This document shows positions 1,439 through 57,356 of a DNA stretch of 64,000 bases, piece by piece. How positions within the stretch are numbered: position 1 is the stretch's first letter; each line of letters starts with the position of its first letter. The notes under the pieces were generated by a model. The model was not told the origin of the DNA and ran no database searches. It worked only from the letters and a program-made list of their open reading frames with translations. Made by a program: the position numbers and the translations under genes. Source of the DNA: Clostridia bacterium (GTDB taxonomy: Bacteria > Bacillota > Clostridia > Oscillospirales > Acutalibacteraceae); the NCBI GenBank assembly GCA_900767025.1, contig CAAFXS010000014.1, positions 1,238-65,237 on the forward strand. Reading direction: 5' to 3'.

Positions 1439-3754
1439 CTAATTGATTTTCACTTTAACCTCTGTATCTGCCGAAAGGGTCAGCTTTTTGATAACCGTAT
1501 CGGCATTAAAAACCATTGCGTTAGCGAGCTTATCCTCAACCTGACGCCTTACCGCGTCACGAAGTCCCCTGGCGTTTTTCTTTGAGCCGAAGGCTTCACC
1601 TGCAAGGAACACAGGCACGCTATCGTCATAAACAAGCTCAATTGCTTTATCCTTAAGGCTTTCCTTAAGCTCATCAAGCATAAGCCTTGCTATTTTTTCA
1701 AAATTATCGTGAGTAAGCTGATTAAATAAAACAATCTCATCAACCCTGCCCAAAAATTCAGGTCTTAAAAATCTTTCAAGAGCCTTCATTGTAACCTCTT
1801 TATTGATATCACCTGCGGATTTGTTAAAGCCAAGAGCAGCTGAATCCGTTGAGCCTGCGTTGGAGGTCATAATAATAACGGTGTTTTCAAAATTAACGGT
1901 TCTGCCCTGAGCGTCGGTAATTCTTCCCTCGTCAAGAATTTGAAGAAGGATATTAAGAACATCCTTATGTGCCTTTTCGATTTCATCAAAAAGGATAACG
2001 CTGTAAGGCTTTCTCCTAACCTTTTCCGTCAGCTGACCTGCATCGTCATAGCCAACATATCCCGGAGGCGAGCCGATAATTCTTGATACGCTGAATTTTT
2101 CCATAAACTCACTCATATCAAGCCTGATAAGGTTGTCGGGACTGTCAAAGAGAGCGTCTGCAAGGCGTTTAACAAGCTCGGTTTTACCAACGCCTGTGGG
2201 ACCTACAAAGATAAATGACTGGGGTCTCTTTTGCGGACTGATTTGAATTCTGCCCCGTCTTACTGCGGCGGCAACCTTTTCAACAGCCTCATCCTGACCG
2301 ATAATATGAGCCTTAAGCTCATCCTCGAGTGCCGCAAGCTTTTTGATATCGTTCTGCTCAATTTTTGATGCAGGGATACCCGTCCACAAAGAGATTACTG
2401 CAGCCAAATCCGACTCAAGCACCTGATTGTCCTTTGCCTTTTCCTCAAGCTCCGGCAAGGTTGAATCAATCTGCATTATCTCGCTTTTAATTTTAGTAAT
2501 CAGCTCGTAATCAATAGTATCATTTTCGCCCGGGTCGGAAAGCTTTTCAACATTTGCCTCAAGCATTTCCTTTTTATCCTTTGCCATCTGATACTGACTG
2601 ATAGCAGGATTGCGGAGGTTTGCACTGGTACAGCTTTCATCAAGCAGGTCTATCGCCTTATCGGGAAGATACCTGTCGGTAACAAAGCGCTCGGACATTG
2701 TAACCGCCCTGTAAACCAGGCTGTCGCTAATCTGCACCTTATGATAATCCTCATAATAGCCCTTAATTCCCAAAAGCATTCTGTAAGCATCGTCAATTGA
2801 CGGCTCCTCGATTTTTACAGGCTGAAATCTTCTTTCAAGTGCGGCATCCTTTTCGATATATTTACGGTACTCGTTAAAGGTTGTTGCACCGATAACCTGA
2901 ATTTCACCTCTTGAAAGAGCAGGCTTAAGGATATTTGCGGCATTCATAGTACCCTCGGAATCACCTGTGCCTACAAGGTTATGAACCTCGTCAATGAACA
3001 GGATAATATTGCCCTCGTGCTTAACCTCGTCAACAAGGCCTTTTATTCTGCCCTCAAACTGACCTCTGAACTGTGTTCCGGCAACAAGAGCCGTTAAGTC
3101 AAGAAGATAAATTTCCTTATCCGCAAGCCTTGCAGGCACCTGACCCTTGGCAATTCGGATAGCAAGTCCCTCGGCAACGGCAGTTTTACCTACGCCGGGC
3201 TCACCGATTAAGCAGGGATTATTTTTTGTTCTGCGGCAAAGAATTTGAATTGTCCTCTGAATTTCGCTTTCTCTGCCGATAATGCTGTCAAGCTTGCCGT
3301 CCTTTGCCCTTTGGGTAAGGTTATTACAATAGGTATTAAGGAACTTTCTTGACTCGTCCTGCGAATTTTTCTTTGGTCGCTTTGAACGCTTTTTTGCACC
3401 TGTGTTACCGTCATTGTCGGTATTCTCCTGTGGAGCCAAAGCACCTCCGCCGAAAAGCTCGCTGAAGGGCATTGTCTGTGCTCCGTCCATATTATCGGGG
3501 TTAAACATTTCCCCAAGGCTTTCAAAATTGAAATCGCCCATATTCTGCATAAAATCAGCCATCTGCTGTGAAGCCATTTCAAGCTCCTCATCGGAGATAC
3601 CCATTTTATCAATCATCTGATTAATTGAGCCGATATTGAGCTCCCTTGCACATTTGATGCAAAGTCCCTCGGGGGTAACATTGTCTCCCTCCATTTTTTG
3701 AATAAACACAACTGCCGGGCGCTCACCGCACCTTGAACACATTTGTTGTTTCAT
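1439..3754 (-). CDS. clpE: ATP-dependent Clp protease ATP-binding subunit ClpE. Domain order: N-terminal zinc ribbon, long linker, then two AAA+ modules
   Basis: N-terminal CSRCG...CIKC zinc finger. Walker A of D1 is [15 protein letters not shown] and of D2 is [19 protein letters not shown]-like middle region is present. The ClpC-type double N-domain is absent, which fits ClpE. Confidence 0.85.
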
Positions 3755-22736: not shown

Positions 22737-22831
22737 CCCGGGTAAAGATAAATCTTTCCCCGGCACGCACGCAGACAACGAAACAGTCCACCGGACTGTT
22801 TCTTCGCTTCGCGATGTCCTGTTCGAGTCTC

Positions 22832-28375: not shown

Positions 28376-28451
28376 GCTGATATGGCTCAGGTGGTAGAGC
28401 ACATCCTTGGTAAGGATGAGGTCACCGGTTCAAGTCCGGTTATCAGCTCCA
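28376..28451 (+). tRNA. tRNA-Thr (anticodon GGT)
   Basis: Acceptor GCTGATA/TATCAGC; anticodon arm CATCC-tTGGTaa-GGATG; T-arm ACCGG-TTCAAGT-CCGGT; T-CCA. Begins 4 nt after tRNA-Asp. Confidence 0.85.
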
Positions 28452-28520
28452 AAAAAAGCATTGAAGTTATGTGCGAGTCCTTTGAGACAACGACGCCGTC
28501 TTCAATGCTTTTTTCTTTTG
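28452..28520 (+). terminator. Terminator after the tRNA pair (long-loop hairpin)
   Basis: AAAAAAGCATTGAAG...(33-nt loop)...CTTCAATGCTTTTTTCTTTTG. Confidence 0.55.
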
Positions 28521-28727
28521 CCAAAGCACCTACAAGAGAGAATTTAAAATTTCAGCGTTCAAAAAGATACATAAATGTTCTTTCGGGATTGTCAAGAAAG
28601 CTTTTGGTAATTTGATAATGCTCTGCTTCCTGGTAATTAACCGATGCTATATATTTTCAATCATCAAAAAATAACTCTTTTAATATGACTGAAAATGCAG
28701 TATAATCAAATACAGAGGGTGATATTT

Positions 28728-30215
28728 ATGGAAGAAAACAAAACATACATAGGTAAAAAAGAAAAAAGAAACTATATTTTCGGCTTATGCGGTCAGAATA
28801 TGGTTTACTCGCTTATCGGCGGTTCATTTTTCACATACTTTATGACAGATATTGCACTGTTCCCTGCTATTGTTGTTTCAGTGCTTTTAATTGTTATGAA
28901 GGTTTGGGACGGAATCAACGACCCTATTGTCGGCTCATTTATCGACAGGCACAGCTTCAAAAACGGTGAAAAAATGCGTCCGTTTTTGAAATATACTCCA
29001 CTGCCCGTTGGCATTTTTACAGTTCTTCTTTTTCTTGTTTTTTCAACAAAGGAGGATTTGCTTTGGCTTAGGGTCGCGTATTTTATAATAATGTATATTT
29101 GCTGGGACCTTGCCTACACGGTTCAGGATGTTTCGGTTTGGGGTATAACTGCAATGATTTCCCCTAATTCTTCGGAACGTGACAAATTAGTTCAATGGGC
29201 AAGGACCTTCGGCAGCTGTGTTTACAGTGCATTAAGCACGGTTATACCTATGGTGCTTGAAATGATTGCAAACGCTAAGGGCGTAAGTATGGCTTTGATC
29301 ACCTTGGTATTTGCCGTAATTTTCGGCTTAGGCGGTGCAATGATCAGTTACAGATGCTCATATGCACAGGAAAGAATACACGTAGAAAAAGAGAACCGAC
29401 AGGAATCAATGAAGGAAAGCTTTCTTTTGCTTTTCAAAAACAAAATGATGCTGCTTGTTACTTTGGCAAATCTTTTCGGTGCGTTAGGATTTGGTATGAA
29501 TCTTGTAACATATTTCTTCAAGTATGAAATCCCCGACAGCTTCCTCGGCAGCAGTATTATCGGTGCTTTAGGCCTTACAACTATTTATTTCATAATTACG
29601 GGACTTCCCGGCTTTATAGGTATGATTTTTGCCGATAAGTTAAAAAAGCTTTTAGGTAACTATGTCAATGTTCTGATTATGATTCAGGTTGTTAATATCA
29701 TTGCAAGAATTTTTGCTTTCGCAGTAGGATTTGAGGGCAAAAAGCTGTGGATATCAATGATTATAATGGGTATCGGCAGTATACCAAGCGGTGCCGCATC
29801 TATTGCGCAAACCTCTATTTTCTGCGACAGTATTGACTATATGGAATGGAAAACAGGCAAGCGTACCGAGGGAATTACATTTTCAATACAGACCTCCTTT
29901 ACTAAAGTCTCAAGCGGTATTACCTCGGGACTTGCAACAATGACTTTGGCTGTTTTGGGCTACAAGGCTATTGACAACGCATCGGTTTATGTAGGCACAC
30001 AGACCGCAGCCTTTGACAAATGGATATGGCCACTGGTTGTTCTCACCCCTGCCATTGCAAGTGTGCTTTACATTATCCCTCTCCTTTTCATCAGATACAC
30101 AAAGGAAAAGAGAGCAATCGTTGAGGGTGATTTAAAGGCAAGAAGAGAGGGCAAGAAGGAATCCGGCTTGTCGCCGTATTGCCTTGATAAATCAAAGAAT
30201 AACAGCGAAGATTGA
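28728..30215 (+). CDS. GPH-family (glycoside-pentoside-hexuronide:cation symporter / MelB-like MFS) transporter
   Basis: 12-TM protein. GPH-type N-terminal loop ...KVWDGINDPIVGSFIDR... GAGGGTGA RBS before the ATG at 28728 (MEENKTYIGK...). Confidence 0.75.
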   Translation: MEENKTYIGKKEKRNYIFGLCGQNMVYSLIGGSFFTYFMTDIALFPAIVVSVLLIVMKVWDGINDPIVGSFIDRHSFKNGEKMRPFLKYTPLPVGIFTVLLFLVFSTKEDLLWLRVAYFIIMYICWDLAYTVQDVSVWGITAMISPNSSERDKLVQWARTFGSCVYSALSTVIPMVLEMIANAKGVSMALITLVFAVIFGLGGAMISYRCSYAQERIHVEKENRQESMKESFLLLFKNKMMLLVTLANLFGALGFGMNLVTYFFKYEIPDSFLGSSIIGALGLTTIYFIITGLPGFIGMIFADKLKKLLGNYVNVLIMIQVVNIIARIFAFAVGFEGKKLWISMIIMGIGSIPSGAASIAQTSIFCDSIDYMEWKTGKRTEGITFSIQTSFTKVSSGITSGLATMTLAVLGYKAIDNASVYVGTQTAAFDKWIWPLVVLTPAIASVLYIIPLLFIRYTKEKRAIVEGDLKARREGKKESGLSPYCLDKSKNNSED

Positions 30216-30253
30216 TGAAAGTATTATTGTTCTTTTTATAATAGAAACATAAT

Positions 30254-30287
30254 TCATCCCCCTCACTCTGATGAATGAGGGGGATAA
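30254..30287. terminator. Bidirectional terminator between the convergent transporter and lysin genes
   Basis: Perfect 10-bp stem ATCCCCCTCA / TGAGGGGGAT with a 10-nt loop and AT-rich flanks. Confidence 0.5.
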
Positions 30288-30288
30288 A

Positions 30289-31404
30289 TTATTTATTATA
30301 CCAAACGGCGCGTTTGTTGCCTTTGTAGTATACAGGAATGTAGCCTGAAGGGATTTCAAGCCAGATATTGCCTGCGGTGTCGGTTGACACGCTTAAAGCT
30401 GAAACAACCGTTCCGGGTGTCAGGATTGCATATGCATCAAGATTTTTGCTTGATGCATGGGCTCTGCCGTCGACGGTAAGGTCTTTGACTTTTTTAATTT
30501 TTGAGCTTGTTGTGGGCTTCGTCCACACATTGATATATGCCGTCAGCTTGTATTTACTGCCTGCATCGTATCTCACAACCTCAATGCCAAGCTTCTTTTG
30601 GTCCTTTGGTCGTAAGACGCCGTTGATATAATCACCGGTATACGGCTTTTCTCGGAGGGTCATTTTGTCGCCGTTGCCGGTGGCATTTTGGTCGTAATAT
30701 TTGAATTCGCCGTCCTTGTTTACCTCCGCAACAATGAAAATATGGCCGTACTTTCCCGATGTTCTTATGCCTATATCACCGGGCTTAAGCTCACCGTTTT
30801 TGTACTTTGGTGTAATCAATTCAAAATTGCTTTTAAGCCATTTATTAGGCTTGGTCCACCATTCCTTTGCGTTGCCCCAAAAGCCTTTTTCAATATCCAG
30901 CACCTTGTCTATAAACGCATCTATAAGGTCCACGCACTGCACGCCGTAGACACCGTCCCGGTCCGTTCGCTTACCTAAATACCTGCCTACAAATGCACTG
31001 AAGGTCATATTATCTCCGCCTTTCTGCTCTTTGTCATTAAAGAATTTATCCTTTATGTAGCTAATTGCAGTAGTAATGATAGGCGGAATATTTATGCCAA
31101 GAGCTCTTGCATTTTCAACGATTGAGGAAATCTCTATCAGGCAAAAGCAAACACAGCTGATTAAGCCGATGGGTGAAAATTCGATATCCGTTGAGCTGAG
31201 TATCAGTGTATCAAGCATCAGGCACATAAGAATCATTCCGAAATAGCCTACGAATTTAGGCACGGACATTCTTAATTTCGAGCTGCTGACACCCTCGACA
31301 AATATACCCTTGCAAAGTCCAAAGATAAAGTCGATAACGAACAGCACCAAAAAGATGATTATTGCTATTAAGCACTTTTTAAAATCTGTTATAAAATATT
31401 CCAT
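30289..31404 (-). CDS. Holin-endolysin in-frame fusion: N-terminal class-I (3-TM) phage holin, then CHAP-domain peptidoglycan hydrolase, then a C-terminal SH3b-like cell-wall-binding region
   Basis: Residues 1-~130 have three TM helices and ...SSK... / ...ENARALG... holin-like motifs. Residues ~133-371 contain CHAP Cys/His (YGVQCVDL ... KYGHIFIV). An internal AAAGGCGGAGA RBS and ATG lie at 31006-31008 in the same frame. Confidence 0.7.
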   Translation of the reverse strand: MEYFITDFKKCLIAIIIFLVLFVIDFIFGLCKGIFVEGVSSSKLRMSVPKFVGYFGMILMCLMLDTLILSSTDIEFSPIGLISCVCFCLIEISSIVENARALGINIPPIITTAISYIKDKFFNDKEQKGGDNMTFSAFVGRYLGKRTDRDGVYGVQCVDLIDAFIDKVLDIEKGFWGNAKEWWTKPNKWLKSNFELITPKYKNGELKPGDIGIRTSGKYGHIFIVAEVNKDGEFKYYDQNATGNGDKMTLREKPYTGDYINGVLRPKDQKKLGIEVVRYDAGSKYKLTAYINVWTKPTTSSKIKKVKDLTVDGRAHASSKNLDAYAILTPGTVVSALSVSTDTAGNIWLEIPSGYIPVYYKGNKRAVWYNK

Positions 31405-31405
31405 T

Positions 31406-33358
31406 TTATTCTCCTTTATTATAATTTCTGTAAGAAAGTCTTGCCGAAAAGCTTACAGTAGCAGTAACCGACTGCATTGCGTAAAGCTCAAACAAGCCGC
31501 CGTTTACTCCCGACGCACCGCCCATTCTTACAGCACATACATCCGTGTTATTACGAGGTTTGCTGAAATTATCACAAAGATAAAGCTTGCTGCTGCCGCC
31601 TGTTGAATCAGGCAGGGTAACACCGCTTTCATATTTTGCAGAGCTGATGAAGCCATTAGCTGACGGATAATCGAAAGATAGTTCGGTATAATTCGTTATG
31701 CTGTTTGAATAGGCATCAGGATTGCTTTCAAGATAATATTTTGAATTATGAAGCAGTATTCCGTCCAGCCAGGTATATCTTTCACCGTAAAGGTTTTCAA
31801 TACCTCTGTATTTTGACTGAGCGGTAACTCCGCCGTAAATAAGCTGTCCCGAAGATGAAGAGATTTGATTTGTCATACCGTTTCTTTTGGTGTTTAACTT
31901 TACACTGAAGGATGAATCAGTAATGATTTCTCCGCCGCTGATAAAGTAACGGTAATATCCTTTATCCATAAGCTCATCAATATCATTTATCAGTTCTATA
32001 CCGGTTACGGTTCTGACTGCCGTACCGTCGTAATCCAAAGGCTCCGGAGACAGATTTTCAGTTATCGGAAAAGCGATTTCCTGACCCACATCAAAAATAC
32101 TGTCAGAATTTGAAACAATGTAGCCGTAGGAAAGTGTATCGGTATTTTCCGTATCAAAAACAGCCCATTCATTAGGATAAAATGTATAAGACTGACTTTT
32201 CTGCTCGTTACCGTATAAAACAGACTGACTGTCAAGGGTTGCAAATTCCACAATAAACAGTGCTTTAATAACCTCATATTCCCAAACATCAAAGCAGTGC
32301 CAGTTTGCTCCCCTTGCAGTTGCAAAGGACCTTGCCTGCGAATAATTGTAATCACCGTAATAAACATTTCCGCTTTTGCTTTCGCCCTTGGTTTTTTCAG
32401 CATCACTGCTCATCATAAATGCAGAAACATAAATTTTGTCAAGCTCTTTGCCATCCTTGTCGATAAACGCTTTTGGAACCTCGTAATACTCGTTAAGCCT
32501 TTCACGGCTGATATACCAGTATTCCCTGCCCAAAGCCTCGTCAAGATAATGCATTAAATAGAACTTGGGGATTTCAACCATAACCTGACCTGCCGAGCCA
32601 TCCTCTGTATATTCGGGATCATCCTCATATGCGGTAACAGAGCCGTCATCTGCAAGAGTGCATTTTTTCATCTGTGACCATGGGTAAATGCGGTCAAAAT
32701 CATTTTGCTCCAGCTCCGTGCCGTTTGAGGCTTTTGCCTTGAGATACCTTGCGTCTGAAAGCCTTGTTAAAGTGGGGTTTTTGGTTTTAAGGTCATAGCA
32801 CACTCCGTATTTTGAGGGGTCAAAATAAAGGCTGTATACCTGTGACGCAATTTCCCTTCTGTCATCTGCGGTAACCACATAGTTGTCACCTTTATCGCCT
32901 TTTTCTCCCTTTTCACCCGGTTCGCCTTTGTCGCCCTTATCTCCCTTGTCACCCTTGAGCCTTCCGCTTTCAACAAGGTTGTTGATAAGGTTGTAATAGT
33001 TTTCAAGAACATCCGGCTGAGGTATCTCCGCCTCGCGGACAATATCACTGTATGAGCCTTTTCTGACGGAAATCATTGTAGGCTCCGGCGAAATTATTCT
33101 GGTATACCTATCTGCCTCAAGGCTATATCCGATAACACCGATAACACAGGTATCACTGTCAAAAGGCGGTGCAATACACTCACCGTTAACCAAAGGCACA
33201 CGCACTCCGTTAAACACCGCCTCTGTTGTTAAATCACCGTATTCCCCGCTGAGATTGAAAACGCATTTTATTTGGTTAATATTGCCCCGGGTTGCTTTTT
33301 CACTGTTATCAACAAGGCGTACACGGCTTTGGGTTACATCAAATTTATATAAAATCAT
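31406..33358 (-). CDS. Phage tail-fibre-like protein with a collagen-like Gly-X-Y repeat (likely trimeric receptor-binding protein)
   Basis: (GDK/GEK)x8 triple-helix segment LKGDKGDKGDKGEPGEKGEKGDKGDN between an N-terminal ~140-aa domain and a ~470-aa C-terminal beta-rich domain. AAGGAAAGG RBS. Its stop lies 1 nt before the holin-lysin start. Confidence 0.6.
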   Translation of the reverse strand: MILYKFDVTQSRVRLVDNSEKATRGNINQIKCVFNLSGEYGDLTTEAVFNGVRVPLVNGECIAPPFDSDTCVIGVIGYSLEADRYTRIISPEPTMISVRKGSYSDIVREAEIPQPDVLENYYNLINNLVESGRLKGDKGDKGDKGEPGEKGEKGDKGDNYVVTADDRREIASQVYSLYFDPSKYGVCYDLKTKNPTLTRLSDARYLKAKASNGTELEQNDFDRIYPWSQMKKCTLADDGSVTAYEDDPEYTEDGSAGQVMVEIPKFYLMHYLDEALGREYWYISRERLNEYYEVPKAFIDKDGKELDKIYVSAFMMSSDAEKTKGESKSGNVYYGDYNYSQARSFATARGANWHCFDVWEYEVIKALFIVEFATLDSQSVLYGNEQKSQSYTFYPNEWAVFDTENTDTLSYGYIVSNSDSIFDVGQEIAFPITENLSPEPLDYDGTAVRTVTGIELINDIDELMDKGYYRYFISGGEIITDSSFSVKLNTKRNGMTNQISSSSGQLIYGGVTAQSKYRGIENLYGERYTWLDGILLHNSKYYLESNPDAYSNSITNYTELSFDYPSANGFISSAKYESGVTLPDSTGGSSKLYLCDNFSKPRNNTDVCAVRMGGASGVNGGLFELYAMQSVTATVSFSARLSYRNYNKGE

Positions 33359-33487
33359 ATTTACATCCTTTCCTTATAACTGTCTTTGAAGAGCTGAGAC
33401 CCTCTTCATTTTCATATTATGAATTTAAACAGAATTGTGCAAGCTGAGGTACAGAGAAAGGGTCTTTATATATTGCCTGTATAGCCT

Positions 33488-33541
33488 AATTTATGCATAA
33501 ATTTATGTGTATATTTATTCAGTTTTATGTATATTTATAAC
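33488..33541 (+). promoter_or_regulatory. AT-rich tandem imperfect palindromes, candidate ArgR (ARG-box) operator of the arg operon
   Basis: TTTATGCATAAATTTATG ... TGTATATTTATTCAG ... TTTTATGTATATTTATAA: repeated TATG-n-ATAAAT-type half-sites immediately upstream of the -35 box. Confidence 0.35.
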
Positions 33542-33558
33542 TATTTTCTCAAATAGTA

Positions 33559-33586
33559 TTGACAATAATATTAGAATGTATATAAT
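33559..33586 (+). promoter_or_regulatory. Sigma-A promoter of argC
   Basis: TTGACA (33559-33564), 16 nt, TATAAT (33581-33586), 38 nt upstream of the argC ATG. Confidence 0.6.
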
Positions 33587-33624
33587 AGATAAGAAATTAG
33601 AAAGATTGCGGAGAATGTATAAAA

Positions 33625-34566
33625 ATGACCAAGGTTTTTATTGACGGAAAGGACGGCACAACCGGCTTAAAAATATACAACAGGTTTGACGGCAGAGATG
33701 ACATCGAGCTTTTGCTCATTGACCCTGAAAAAAGGAAGGATGCCAAGGAGAGGGCAAGGCTTATACACGAAAGCGACATAACCTTTCTCTGTCTGCCGGA
33801 TGCGGCTTCAATTGAGGCGGTTGCACTTGCAGGTGACTGTGACACAAAAATAATTGACACCTCAACGGCACACAGAACTCTTGAGGGCTGGGCATACGGC
33901 TTTGCGGAATTAAGCACTGACCACCGACGAAAAATTGAAAGCAGTAGCAGAATTGCCGTACCCGGCTGTTATGCAACGGGATTTAACTCAATAGTTTATC
34001 CCCTAATAAAAAACGGATTTATCGGCAGTGACTATGACATTGTGTGCCATGCTTTAAGCGGTTACACCGGTGCAGGCAAAAAAGGTATTGCTCAATACGA
34101 GGACGAAAGCAGGGACAGGGAGCTTGACTCGCCAAGGCTTTACGCATTAACACAGGAGCATAAGCACCTTAAGGAAATGAAGGCTGTCAGCGGTCTTGAC
34201 AAATTCCCGATTTTTTCACCTATCATCTGCGATTATCCGAGAGGTATGGTTGTTACCGTTCCCCTTTACACAGACAGGATGAATAAAAAATATTCCAAAG
34301 AGGATATACAAAAAATGTTCAGCGAGCATTATGCAGGCAGTGACATAATCAAGGTCAGAGAGCTTGGATACACTGAAGGTATGATAGGCTGTAACAATTT
34401 TGAAGGCCGTGACGATTTGGAAATTGAAATCAACGGCAATGATGACAGAATACTCATTACCGCCCGCTTTGACAATCTGGGCAAGGGTGCCTCGGGTGCT
34501 GCTATACAGTGTATGAACATTGCTATGGGTATTGACGAAAAAACAGGACTTAATATAGGAGAATGA
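33625..34566 (+). CDS. argC: N-acetyl-gamma-glutamyl-phosphate reductase
   Basis: Short-form ArgC, 313 aa. Catalytic ...AVPGCYATG... Cys motif. Confidence 0.88.
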   Translation: MTKVFIDGKDGTTGLKIYNRFDGRDDIELLLIDPEKRKDAKERARLIHESDITFLCLPDAASIEAVALAGDCDTKIIDTSTAHRTLEGWAYGFAELSTDHRRKIESSSRIAVPGCYATGFNSIVYPLIKNGFIGSDYDIVCHALSGYTGAGKKGIAQYEDESRDRELDSPRLYALTQEHKHLKEMKAVSGLDKFPIFSPIICDYPRGMVVTVPLYTDRMNKKYSKEDIQKMFSEHYAGSDIIKVRELGYTEGMIGCNNFEGRDDLEIEINGNDDRILITARFDNLGKGASGAAIQCMNIAMGIDEKTGLNIGE

Positions 34567-57242: not shown

Positions 57243-57356
57243 ATCTAACAACTGCGGGGGCAGGACCGAGGGAAAGGCAGTAGCTACGAAACAGTCCACA
57301 GGACTGTTTCTCCCAAATTGCAAAGCAATTTGGAGCCTCCTGTCGCAGATTCGTGT
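57243..57356. repeat. Structured non-coding element in the 3-prime flank of tRNA-fMet
   Basis: A 14-nt direct repeat of the tRNA 3-prime end, TGCGGGGGCAGGAC (57243-57256; the tRNA copy is at 57408-57421). Hairpin GAAACAGTCC-aca-GGACTGTTTC (57278-57300). Hairpin CCAAATTGC-aaa-GCAATTTGG. A degenerate inverted copy of the tRNA variable-loop/T-arm, GTCGCAGaTTCGtGTCCTGC (57332-57351). Confidence 0.6.

Follow-up and report, generated by a model that had tools for sequence, protein, structure and literature searches.

A phage-type holin and a CHAP endolysin encoded as one conserved protein in gut Clostridia

Contig CAAFXS010000014.1 of a Clostridia bacterium harbours a gene in which a phage holin and a CHAP endolysin are joined in one reading frame. 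We analysed this gene in a stretch of 64,000 nt (the window; all positions refer to its numbering, and the features are on the minus strand unless stated otherwise). The open reading frame (ORF) with the architecture holin::CHAP::SH3b-like (30289..31404) is complete and comprises 371 codons from the ATG at 31404-31402 to the stop codon at 30291-30289, with zero internal stops. Thus, reading of the sequence confirmed an earlier annotation made from the DNA letters (hereafter the original prediction), according to which a single ORF of this length runs from the holin into the lysin unbroken by a stop. The assignment is based on the ORF list, the sequence, the Pfam matches PF05105 and PF05257, and homologs with the same organization (P0001-P0024 and others alike). 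The Shine-Dalgarno (SD) sequence AAAGGAG (31411..31417) is located 6 nt before the start codon. Since the ORF begins 1 nt past the stop codon (31408-31406) of an upstream gene encoding a 650-aa phage tail protein, the two genes are probably translationally coupled. A scan revealed a terminator-like hairpin (30249..30292) directly 3' of the stop codon of the fused gene.

An AlphaFold model of the fused protein, computed with 26 homologs in the input, has a mean predicted local distance difference test score (pLDDT) of 80.6 and a predicted template modelling score (pTM) of 0.44. It is laid out as helices 2-35, 42-71 and 79-101, an amphipathic helix (108-121), a disordered linker (123-130), an alpha/beta domain (135-272) and a beta domain (284-368).

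The N-terminal holin module (residues 1-122; 31039..31404) was delimited using Pfam, the AlphaFold helices, free-standing holins and counts of lysine plus arginine (K+R). It matches Phage_holin_4_1 (PF05105) with residues 8-119 (E 1.5e-19; 70.6 bits at a curated threshold of 22.2), and this match is full-length, covering profile positions 7-116 of 116. The module contains transmembrane (TM) helices at approximately 10-30, 51-69 and 79-97, the amphipathic helix 108-121, and the conserved residues E91, S94, E97, N98 and P107. A search with residues 1-124 alone yielded 12 free-standing holins of 129-142 aa (P0121-P0132), which are 72-84% identical to the module and have short acidic C-terminal tails; that no fused proteins were returned by this holin-only search is due to the limit of the word index and not to rarity of fusions. 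On their own contigs, the free-standing holins are located after tail genes and before separate lysin genes. In L131, for example, the free holin is overlapped by 14 nt at its end by a separate lysin of another CHAP type, and in L132 it is followed by a separate C39-like peptidase lysin. The full-length PF05105 match and the highly similar free holins preceding lysins show that the module is a holin homolog, and homology together with gene context indicates an ordinary phage holin.

In the 26 homologs the mean K+R content is 0.9 in the N-terminus, 3.6 in loop 1, 0.2 in loop 2 and 5.1 in the tail following the third TM helix. According to the positive-inside rule, this distribution predicts an N-out/C-in orientation, which is the topology of class I holins and would place the lysin in the cytoplasm. 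The original prediction had described the N-terminus as a class-I holin-like segment with three TM helices.

The following CHAP cysteine peptidase domain (residues 133-272; 30589..31008) was recognized by Pfam, PHROG endolysin families, PDB matches and invariant columns. The Pfam match to PF05257 spans residues 151-240 with E 1.9e-11 and 44.7 bits (cut-off 26). The catalytic residues are Cys157 in GVQCVDL (30936-30934) and His221 in YGHIF (30744-30742), the same two that had been picked out in YGVQCVDL and KYGHIFIV beforehand; both of them, as well as D238 and N240, are invariant in an alignment of 26 homologs (A1). By sequence and fold, the best PDB matches of residues 135-368 are the CHAP-SH3 endolysin PlyGRCS, followed by PlyPy, LysK CHAPK and LysGH15. 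The active site of the lysin is intact, and cleavage of peptidoglycan is predicted. The C-terminal part (residues 281-371; 30292..30564) is a putative cell-wall-binding, SH3b-like beta domain. No match to Pfam was found with residues 270-371 even at E<=1, so that the earlier label "SH3b-like tail" is not backed by Pfam. It has indirect support from the beta strands at residues 284-368 in the AlphaFold model (pLDDT >90), from Foldseek, which aligned CHAP and tail to PlyGRCS over 266 columns, and from SH3_3 (PF08239) matches in homologs.

Is the fused frame real? In a search of 5.8 billion proteins, we found homologs with 44-94% identity that have similar length, the same PF05105 and PF05257 architecture and an unbroken ORF. 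In A1, the holin part, the junction NDKEQKGG and Cys157/His221 are conserved. The same uninterrupted frame is present in the DNA of independent assemblies, the junction being identical at 94%, 87%, 76%, 69% and lower overall identity, which rules out an assembly error or a missed stop. Among close homologs none has a stop codon at the junction, a feature that according to the original prediction would have spoken against a true fusion. Compared to the copy in L116 (95% nucleotide identity), the ratio of nonsynonymous to synonymous substitution rates (dN/dS) is 0.085 for the holin, 0.138 for CHAP and 0.100 for the tail domain. For more distant copies dS is saturated, and dN is 0.08-0.26 in holin and CHAP and 0.26-0.81 in the C-terminal domain. 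These values indicate that every part of the fused gene is under purifying selection.

The prevalence of the fusion was assessed in the 120 protein clusters nearest to the window lysin, where a lysin was scored as fused when predicted TM helices lay in an N-terminal extension that was 65 residues or longer. A membrane module is fused to the lysin in 102 of these clusters, and only 16 consist of free lysins. Such recurrence is far beyond chance, and the fusion is the predominant state of this lysin family. The original prediction had called the arrangement unusual; this is true for the literature but not for the family, in which fusion is the rule. Five groups of extensions, without detectable mutual similarity, can be distinguished (r1t-like with two TM helices, 62 clusters; PF05105, 30; PF04531, 7; PF16945, 3; other, 1). 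In a neighbour-joining tree of the CHAP domain the module types are thoroughly interleaved, with 34 runs over 119 leaves, which shows that one membrane module repeatedly replaced another without loss of the fused state. This lysin has thus received holin-type modules of five or more unrelated kinds at its N-terminus.

In one relative, the PF05105 holin of the window is joined to a different lysin. In this protein, P0025, the junction DQKKSGGEGGT-M leads into a cysteine peptidase with weak C39-like similarity, whose C-terminal beta domain is similar; the corresponding holin and lysin are separate genes in L132.

The junction linker NDKEQKGGDN (residues 123-132; 31009..31038), defined by A1, motif counts and AlphaFold, is near-invariant in A1 and disordered in the model (pLDDT about 39). 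A motif [E/Q]-Q-[K/L]-G-[G/S/A] with 2-4 small residues after it is present in 96 of the 102 fused clusters, and in the form E-Q-[K/L]-G-G it links the same lysin to the five unrelated holin-type modules (junctions of P0001-P0114). Its codons vary synonymously (GAA/GAG, CAA/CAG, AAA/AAG, GGC/GGT, GGA/GGT/GGC), which shows a constraint at the protein level. It is possible that the motif is a cleavage site, a hinge, or a recombination scar kept by selection. Several other explanations for the motif were considered. The invariant Gly-Gly is not an in-frame SD sequence of an internal start, because most of its codons read GGC GGN, the codons for E, Q, K and G vary synonymously, and the start is often lost. 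The idea of a double-glycine leader of the bacteriocin type was dropped, since position -4 is Gln instead of a hydrophobic residue and the motif is internal. For a signal peptidase I site, small residues are common at -3/-1; the C-in prediction and the distance to the third TM helix oppose it, leaving it as a minor rival.

The original prediction further pointed to an in-frame ATG at codon 133 with an upstream ribosome-binding-site-like sequence. Indeed, a candidate internal initiation site (31006..31023) exists: AAAGGCGGAGA at 31023-31013 contains a GGAG core (31017-31014), which is separated by a 5-nt spacer from the ATG at 31008-31006 (Met133). Fourteen of the 16 free lysins start exactly at the Met133 column, and in unfused loci the last holin codons encode the SD sequence of the lysin and overlap its start in another frame. 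The GGAG and ATG of the window therefore descend from a real start. In the 102 fused clusters, the column contains M (41), L (36), T (18), V (4), I, Q and F (1 each), so that Met is absent in 61. At the DNA level, the corresponding codon in 27 distinct fused loci is ATG in 10, GTG in 2 and a non-start codon in 15 (CTT nine times, further TTA, ACG, ATC, ATT, GCG and GTT), and in 10 of these 15 loci the 12 codons to each side are also free of in-frame ATG, GTG and TTG. Even among the 10 loci with ATG, an SD-like core at usable spacing was found in only four (the window, L116, L014 and L028). We also considered that M, L and V in this column could correspond to ATG, TTG and GTG starts and rejected this, since Leu is encoded by CTT (nine times) and TTA, never by TTG, and the column also contains T, I, Q and F. 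A promoter-like match at 31037-31009 ends right at the ATG and cannot serve this start.

The pattern in the start column fits a path from separate genes via merger of the frames to decay of a dispensable start. The non-start codons in 15 of the 27 fused loci show that the full-length fusion is the conserved product, maintained by selection. Free lysin from the internal start would be optional at best: the window copy retains both signals and could possibly produce some of it, which cannot be the conserved function. Thus, the proposed dual product from nested starts lacks support as a design principle.

We then looked at the genomic homes of the relatives. P0003 (76% identical) is encoded on the podophage contigs L117 and L118 after genes for a phi29-type major capsid protein, connector, lower collar and tail knob. 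In the phage copy of L117 the codon at the Met133 column is TTA, and no other recognizable holin or lysin is present on this 14-kb podophage contig. P0006 (64% identical) closes a siphophage-type prophage in L124. P0009 (62% identical; L121-L123) is an orphan between a LysR gene and a helix-turn-helix (HTH) gene and has no phage gene nearer than 10 kb. P0088, an r1t-like fusion found in 248 index blocks, follows a BppU/collagen tail fibre gene and a pair of small genes, of which one is weakly XhlA-like, at the edge of a phage-like element. The fusion hence recurs in phages, at prophage ends and in chromosomal remnants of related gut Clostridia. A tblastn search against INPHARED, which covers GenBank records of cultured phages, returned only staphylococcal CHAP lysins of approximately 25% identity, among which there was no fused relative. 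An IMG/VR match with 24% identity that seemed full-length (L083) turned out to be an ordinary separate holin and glucosaminidase lysin. As to the surroundings of P0009, its neighbours encode a LysR-type regulator and a 360-aa HTH_3 protein, a PrsW-family protease is encoded two genes away, and the metagenome-assembled genome carries a second copy on another contig (L006).

The window copy itself is located in a bacterial chromosome and not, as assumed in the original prediction, in a phage context. To one side its neighbours are argC-argJ-argB-argD-argF; to the other there are an MFS_2 transporter gene, tRNA-Thr/tRNA-Asp, and genes for an M28 peptidase and for a GH20 enzyme. Instead of an intact prophage lysis module, only the co-oriented upstream tail protein gene (31406..33358; phrog_5302, E 2e-55) accompanies the fused gene. 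This gene is intact, and its product has a collagen-like GDKGDKGEPGEKGEKGDKGD repeat, with GDKGDKGDKGEPGEKGEKGDKGD at about residues 136-158. Homologs of the tail protein adjoin lysins in L001, L079 and L116. No further phage structural genes were detected when the ten flanking ORFs (approximately 24.5-38.9 kb) were scanned against Pfam, and neither att-type direct repeats around the two-gene island nor an integrase gene were found. In the region 30100-33700 there is no credible match to Rfam families. The window copy appears to be the tail end of a phage late operon stranded in a chromosomal lysis-cassette slot between argC and tRNA-Thr.

This slot is occupied in related genomes, too. A lysin of the window family is located directly beside argC in eight other genomes of different species, whose ArgC proteins are 65-82% identical to that of the window. 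In L007, L009 and L015 a small XhlA-like gene encoding a TM/coiled-coil protein is accompanied by an r1t-like::CHAP fusion; L016 and L019 combine a small XhlA-like gene with a free lysin and an SPP1-type holin that is encoded separately; and L023, L024 and L036 have a free lysin, which in L024 and L036 is accompanied by a small XhlA-like gene and an r1t-like holin encoded on its own. All nine genomes examined have an intact lysin, and its identity correlates with that of ArgC over the nine loci with a Spearman coefficient of 0.51, the pairs not being independent. L019 additionally shares the downstream tRNA and M28 genes with the window. In L015 the tRNAs directly follow the lysin, whereas in the window, and only there, the MFS_2 transporter gene (glycoside-pentoside-hexuronide type; 28695-30215, plus strand) lies in between; it thus looks like an insertion into the slot.

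The 5' region of the slot (33359..33624; delimited by alignment A2 and blastn boundaries) is shared with the divergent argC promoter and includes the SD sequence and ATG of the first cassette gene. These 266 nt between argC and the cassette are homologous in five genomes (A2: the window and four others) through the first start codon. They contain a promoter-like element, TTGCAC (33442-33437) and TAATAT (33419-33414) separated by 17 nt, and a stem-loop (33407-33388) without Rfam match, in which the stem covaries (GAAGAG/CTCTTC, GAGAG/CTCTC, ACAG/CTGT, TGCAAA/TTTGCA) and the loop GGTCT[C/T]AG is conserved. At the other end, the blastn similarity between the window and L116 ends at 30256, 33 nt past the stop codon, at the terminator hairpin. 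Further downstream (3150-3470), L116 contains two segments of 24-35 nt that match the 3' end of the window tRNA-Thr. They resemble a prophage att junction. A related sequence of 26-37 nt recurs near other tRNA genes of the window; the window positions concerned by these matches are 28432-28465, 22778-22803 and 57283-57319. The slot beside argC may be a hot spot of integration that contains remnants, or else a cassette retained by the host.

Based on these observations, we propose that the gene probably encodes a single-chain lysis protein, in which the cytoplasmic tail of a holin with three TM helices is covalently linked to an endolysin of the CHAP-SH3b-like type and which is selected as one polypeptide. 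The fusion would accumulate in the membrane in the N-out/C-in orientation, the folded lysin being tethered on the cytoplasmic face, where it would be harmless. Upon triggering, the holin module would open the membrane, and each hole would be lined with lysin at 1:1 stoichiometry. The lysin could then reach the adjacent peptidoglycan and cut it, either while attached to the holin or once the conserved, disordered linker has been cleaved. In the window copy, the retained GGAG and ATG at 5-nt spacing may add some free lysin. That a holin can carry such a load is known from the fusion of lambda S105 to green fluorescent protein (GFP), in which the GFP is reportedly joined at the cytoplasmic C-terminus of the holin. 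A holin-null prophage is complemented by S105-GFP, which forms rafts prior to lysis (PMC10865782); a class I holin therefore tolerates a fused folded domain.

Some points weigh against this proposal. The topology is a prediction based on the positive-inside rule and on an AlphaFold model with low pTM. The tether of approximately 10 residues may limit the reach into the wall in Gram-positive lysis unless the lysin is released, and a protease or self-cleavage is hypothetical. Small TM or XhlA-like genes are located upstream of many fused loci, though not in the window, L121 and L117, and could encode the real triggering holins. Further, a consensus scan did not reveal a strong promoter at the window locus, and no phage is present, so that expression here is hypothetical. 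A more far-reaching version of the proposal, which we consider rather doubtful, is that the fusion is a self-sufficient one-gene lysis device widespread in gut Clostridia, that the junction, preserved while holin modules were exchanged in front of it, is functional as a release or processing site or as a hinge required for passage of the lysin through the holin lesion, and that the copy beside argC, with its own conserved promoter and covarying 5' stem-loop, is retained and regulated by the host for programmed autolysis or release instead of serving a phage.

Other explanations have to be weighed against the single-chain lysis protein. In a nested-gene design, the fusion would be the regulator or anchor, while free lysin starting at Met133 would be the real wall degrader. 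Such a design would explain the GGAG and ATG in the window and L116, the free lysins beginning at this column and the SD sequences encoded in the 3' ends of unfused holin genes. In-frame secondary starts are also known elsewhere, for example in the Ms6 lysA gene, which reportedly gives rise to Lysin384 and Lysin241 (PMC3111421). This explanation is nevertheless unlikely in view of the frequent loss of the start codon, mostly without a nearby substitute, the TTA in the phage copy of L117, the scarcity of SD-like cores and the Gly-Gly codons, which are not the GGA GG expected of a selected SD sequence. Even less probable is an export of the signal-anchor or signal-arrest-release (SAR) type, in which the N-terminus would tether the lysin outside the membrane (C-out) in an inactive form until depolarisation. 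As expected of a dedicated anchor, fusion is the norm in the lysin family; the helices of the commonest, r1t-like module are rich in Ala, Gly and Ser, reminiscent of SAR domains; and the small residues often found at -3/-1 before the lysin start column loosely resemble a signal-peptidase site. In the window module, however, we find not a single weakly hydrophobic exporting helix but three strongly hydrophobic ones, the alternation of K+R fits N-out/C-in with the tail before the lysin as the most basic segment, and the closest stand-alone holins are paired with lysins to which no membrane module is fused. Approximately 35 residues separate the candidate cleavage site from the end of the third TM helix. 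The r1t-like modules, with two TM helices and strongly basic N-termini, likewise predict C-in.

The most serious competitor, which we regard as a real though not the favoured possibility, is that in the window genome the gene is merely what a degraded phage left behind: inert debris that looks intact but is not expressed and currently has no role. Only two phage genes are left, and a lone tail protein is useless; the highly similar L116 copy, with its different downstream flank and tRNA-Thr-like repeats, suggests a recent phage origin; and att repeats, an integrase and a strong consensus promoter were not found at the window locus. On the other hand, both genes are intact, the lysin is kept intact beside argC in each of the nine genomes with an identity that tracks that of ArgC, and the 5' region of the slot is conserved up to the first start codon together with its promoter-like element and covarying stem-loop. 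Moreover, orphan fused genes are kept elsewhere (L121-L123). As for a sequencing or assembly artefact, in which a missed stop or a frameshift would have joined two genes, nothing beyond the rarity of such fusions in the literature speaks for it, and it is practically negligible given the identical junction in independent assemblies, the 102 fused clusters and the purifying selection on both sides of the junction.

How does the proposed single-chain lysis protein compare with known systems? SAR and signal-peptide endolysins such as P1 Lyz and R of phage 21 have a single weakly hydrophobic, Gly/Ala-rich helix that exports the enzyme C-out. Like them, the window protein has an N-terminal membrane segment and would be tethered before lysis; in contrast to the SAR helix, which is not homologous to holins, its N-terminus is a complete holin with several TM helices and predicted C-in. 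CTP1L and CD27L give rise to C-terminal products by in-frame secondary translation. The window gene, which keeps GGAG and ATG, shares with these two, with the dual start of lambda S107/S105 and with Ms6 lysA a possible second in-frame start leading to a shorter product, but the internal start is conserved and functional there and lost in more than half of the fused relatives of the window gene. PlyGRCS (PDB 8h1i/8xyf) and the LysK type (4csh) consist of CHAP and then an SH3-type wall-binding domain, the order predicted for the window protein, with the conserved Cys-His pair; they are approximately 20-26% identical, soluble and without a membrane module.

The two-gene PF05105 cassettes of small enterococcal podophages (PMC10630273) and of L131, L132 and L083 agree with the window gene in the holin family, the order tail-holin-lysin and the position at the end of the late operon. 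They differ in that the holin ends with a short charged tail and a stop codon and the lysin has its own SD sequence and start, often overlapping, whereas in the window the frames are merged. TcdE of the C. difficile pathogenicity locus, one of several chromosomal holin-like secretion genes (PMC9527704, PMC8878733), is likewise a PF05105 protein at a chromosomal, non-prophage site of a Clostridia-class genome. It is, however, a separate small protein releasing toxins without lysis, while the window holin is fused to a hydrolase with intact active site and no toxin-like cargo gene is present.

The closest precedent is the natural holin-endolysin fusion of the TpeE/BhlA family in Clostridium sporogenes (WP_163247266.1) described by Brueser and Mehner-Breitfeld in 2022 (PMC9527704), who interpreted it as a functional delivery of one cargo by one holin, possibly followed by cleavage. 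In both cases the holin's C-terminus is translationally fused to an endolysin in a host of the Clostridium class, and tethered and cleaved alternatives were proposed there as well; as in that description of a natural fusion, the window gene is one frame present in independent genomes. The C. sporogenes holin, reported from six genomes of one species, has just one short TM helix along with an amphipathic helix (PMC9527704). The window protein lacks this TpeE/BhlA single-TM architecture and instead combines a PF05105 holin having three TM helices with a CHAP-SH3b-like lysin, within a large family with five modules and the E-Q-[K/L]-G-G junction.

In full-text literature, with subscription-only papers outside the scope, PMC9527704 was the only report of natural holin-endolysin fusions found. 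They are not mentioned in surveys that deal with the architectures of endolysins or with the lysis cassettes of enterococcal phages. Thus, the large fused family from gut Clostridia is almost undescribed, and the kind of arrangement was barely described before. When the fused protein was compared to PHROGs profiles, endolysin and holin families were returned; the profile of the "holin" family phrog_199 spans 545 columns, and the "holin" family phrog_297 aligns to the junction and the first 70 CHAP residues (query 125-197). Therefore, PHROG holin families may already contain fused or truncated holin-lysin proteins that were not recognized as such.

The fused family is important for several reasons. 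In textbook phage lysis, the holin acts as a timer and the endolysin is a separate protein, so that their amounts and timing can be tuned independently. The fusion forces 1:1 stoichiometry of holin and lysin as well as tethering to the membrane. It therefore represents a natural experiment on how endolysins cross or use holin lesions and a test of the 2022 model, derived from one example, in which the C-terminus is flipped with its cargo. The five interchangeable modules on one junction are ready chimeras for dissecting holin function, and compact one-gene lysis cassettes for engineering Gram-positive anaerobes could possibly be derived from the family. Last but not least, given the chromosomal copies at a conserved slot that seems to be regulated, lysis may possibly have been domesticated in abundant, poorly studied gut Clostridia.

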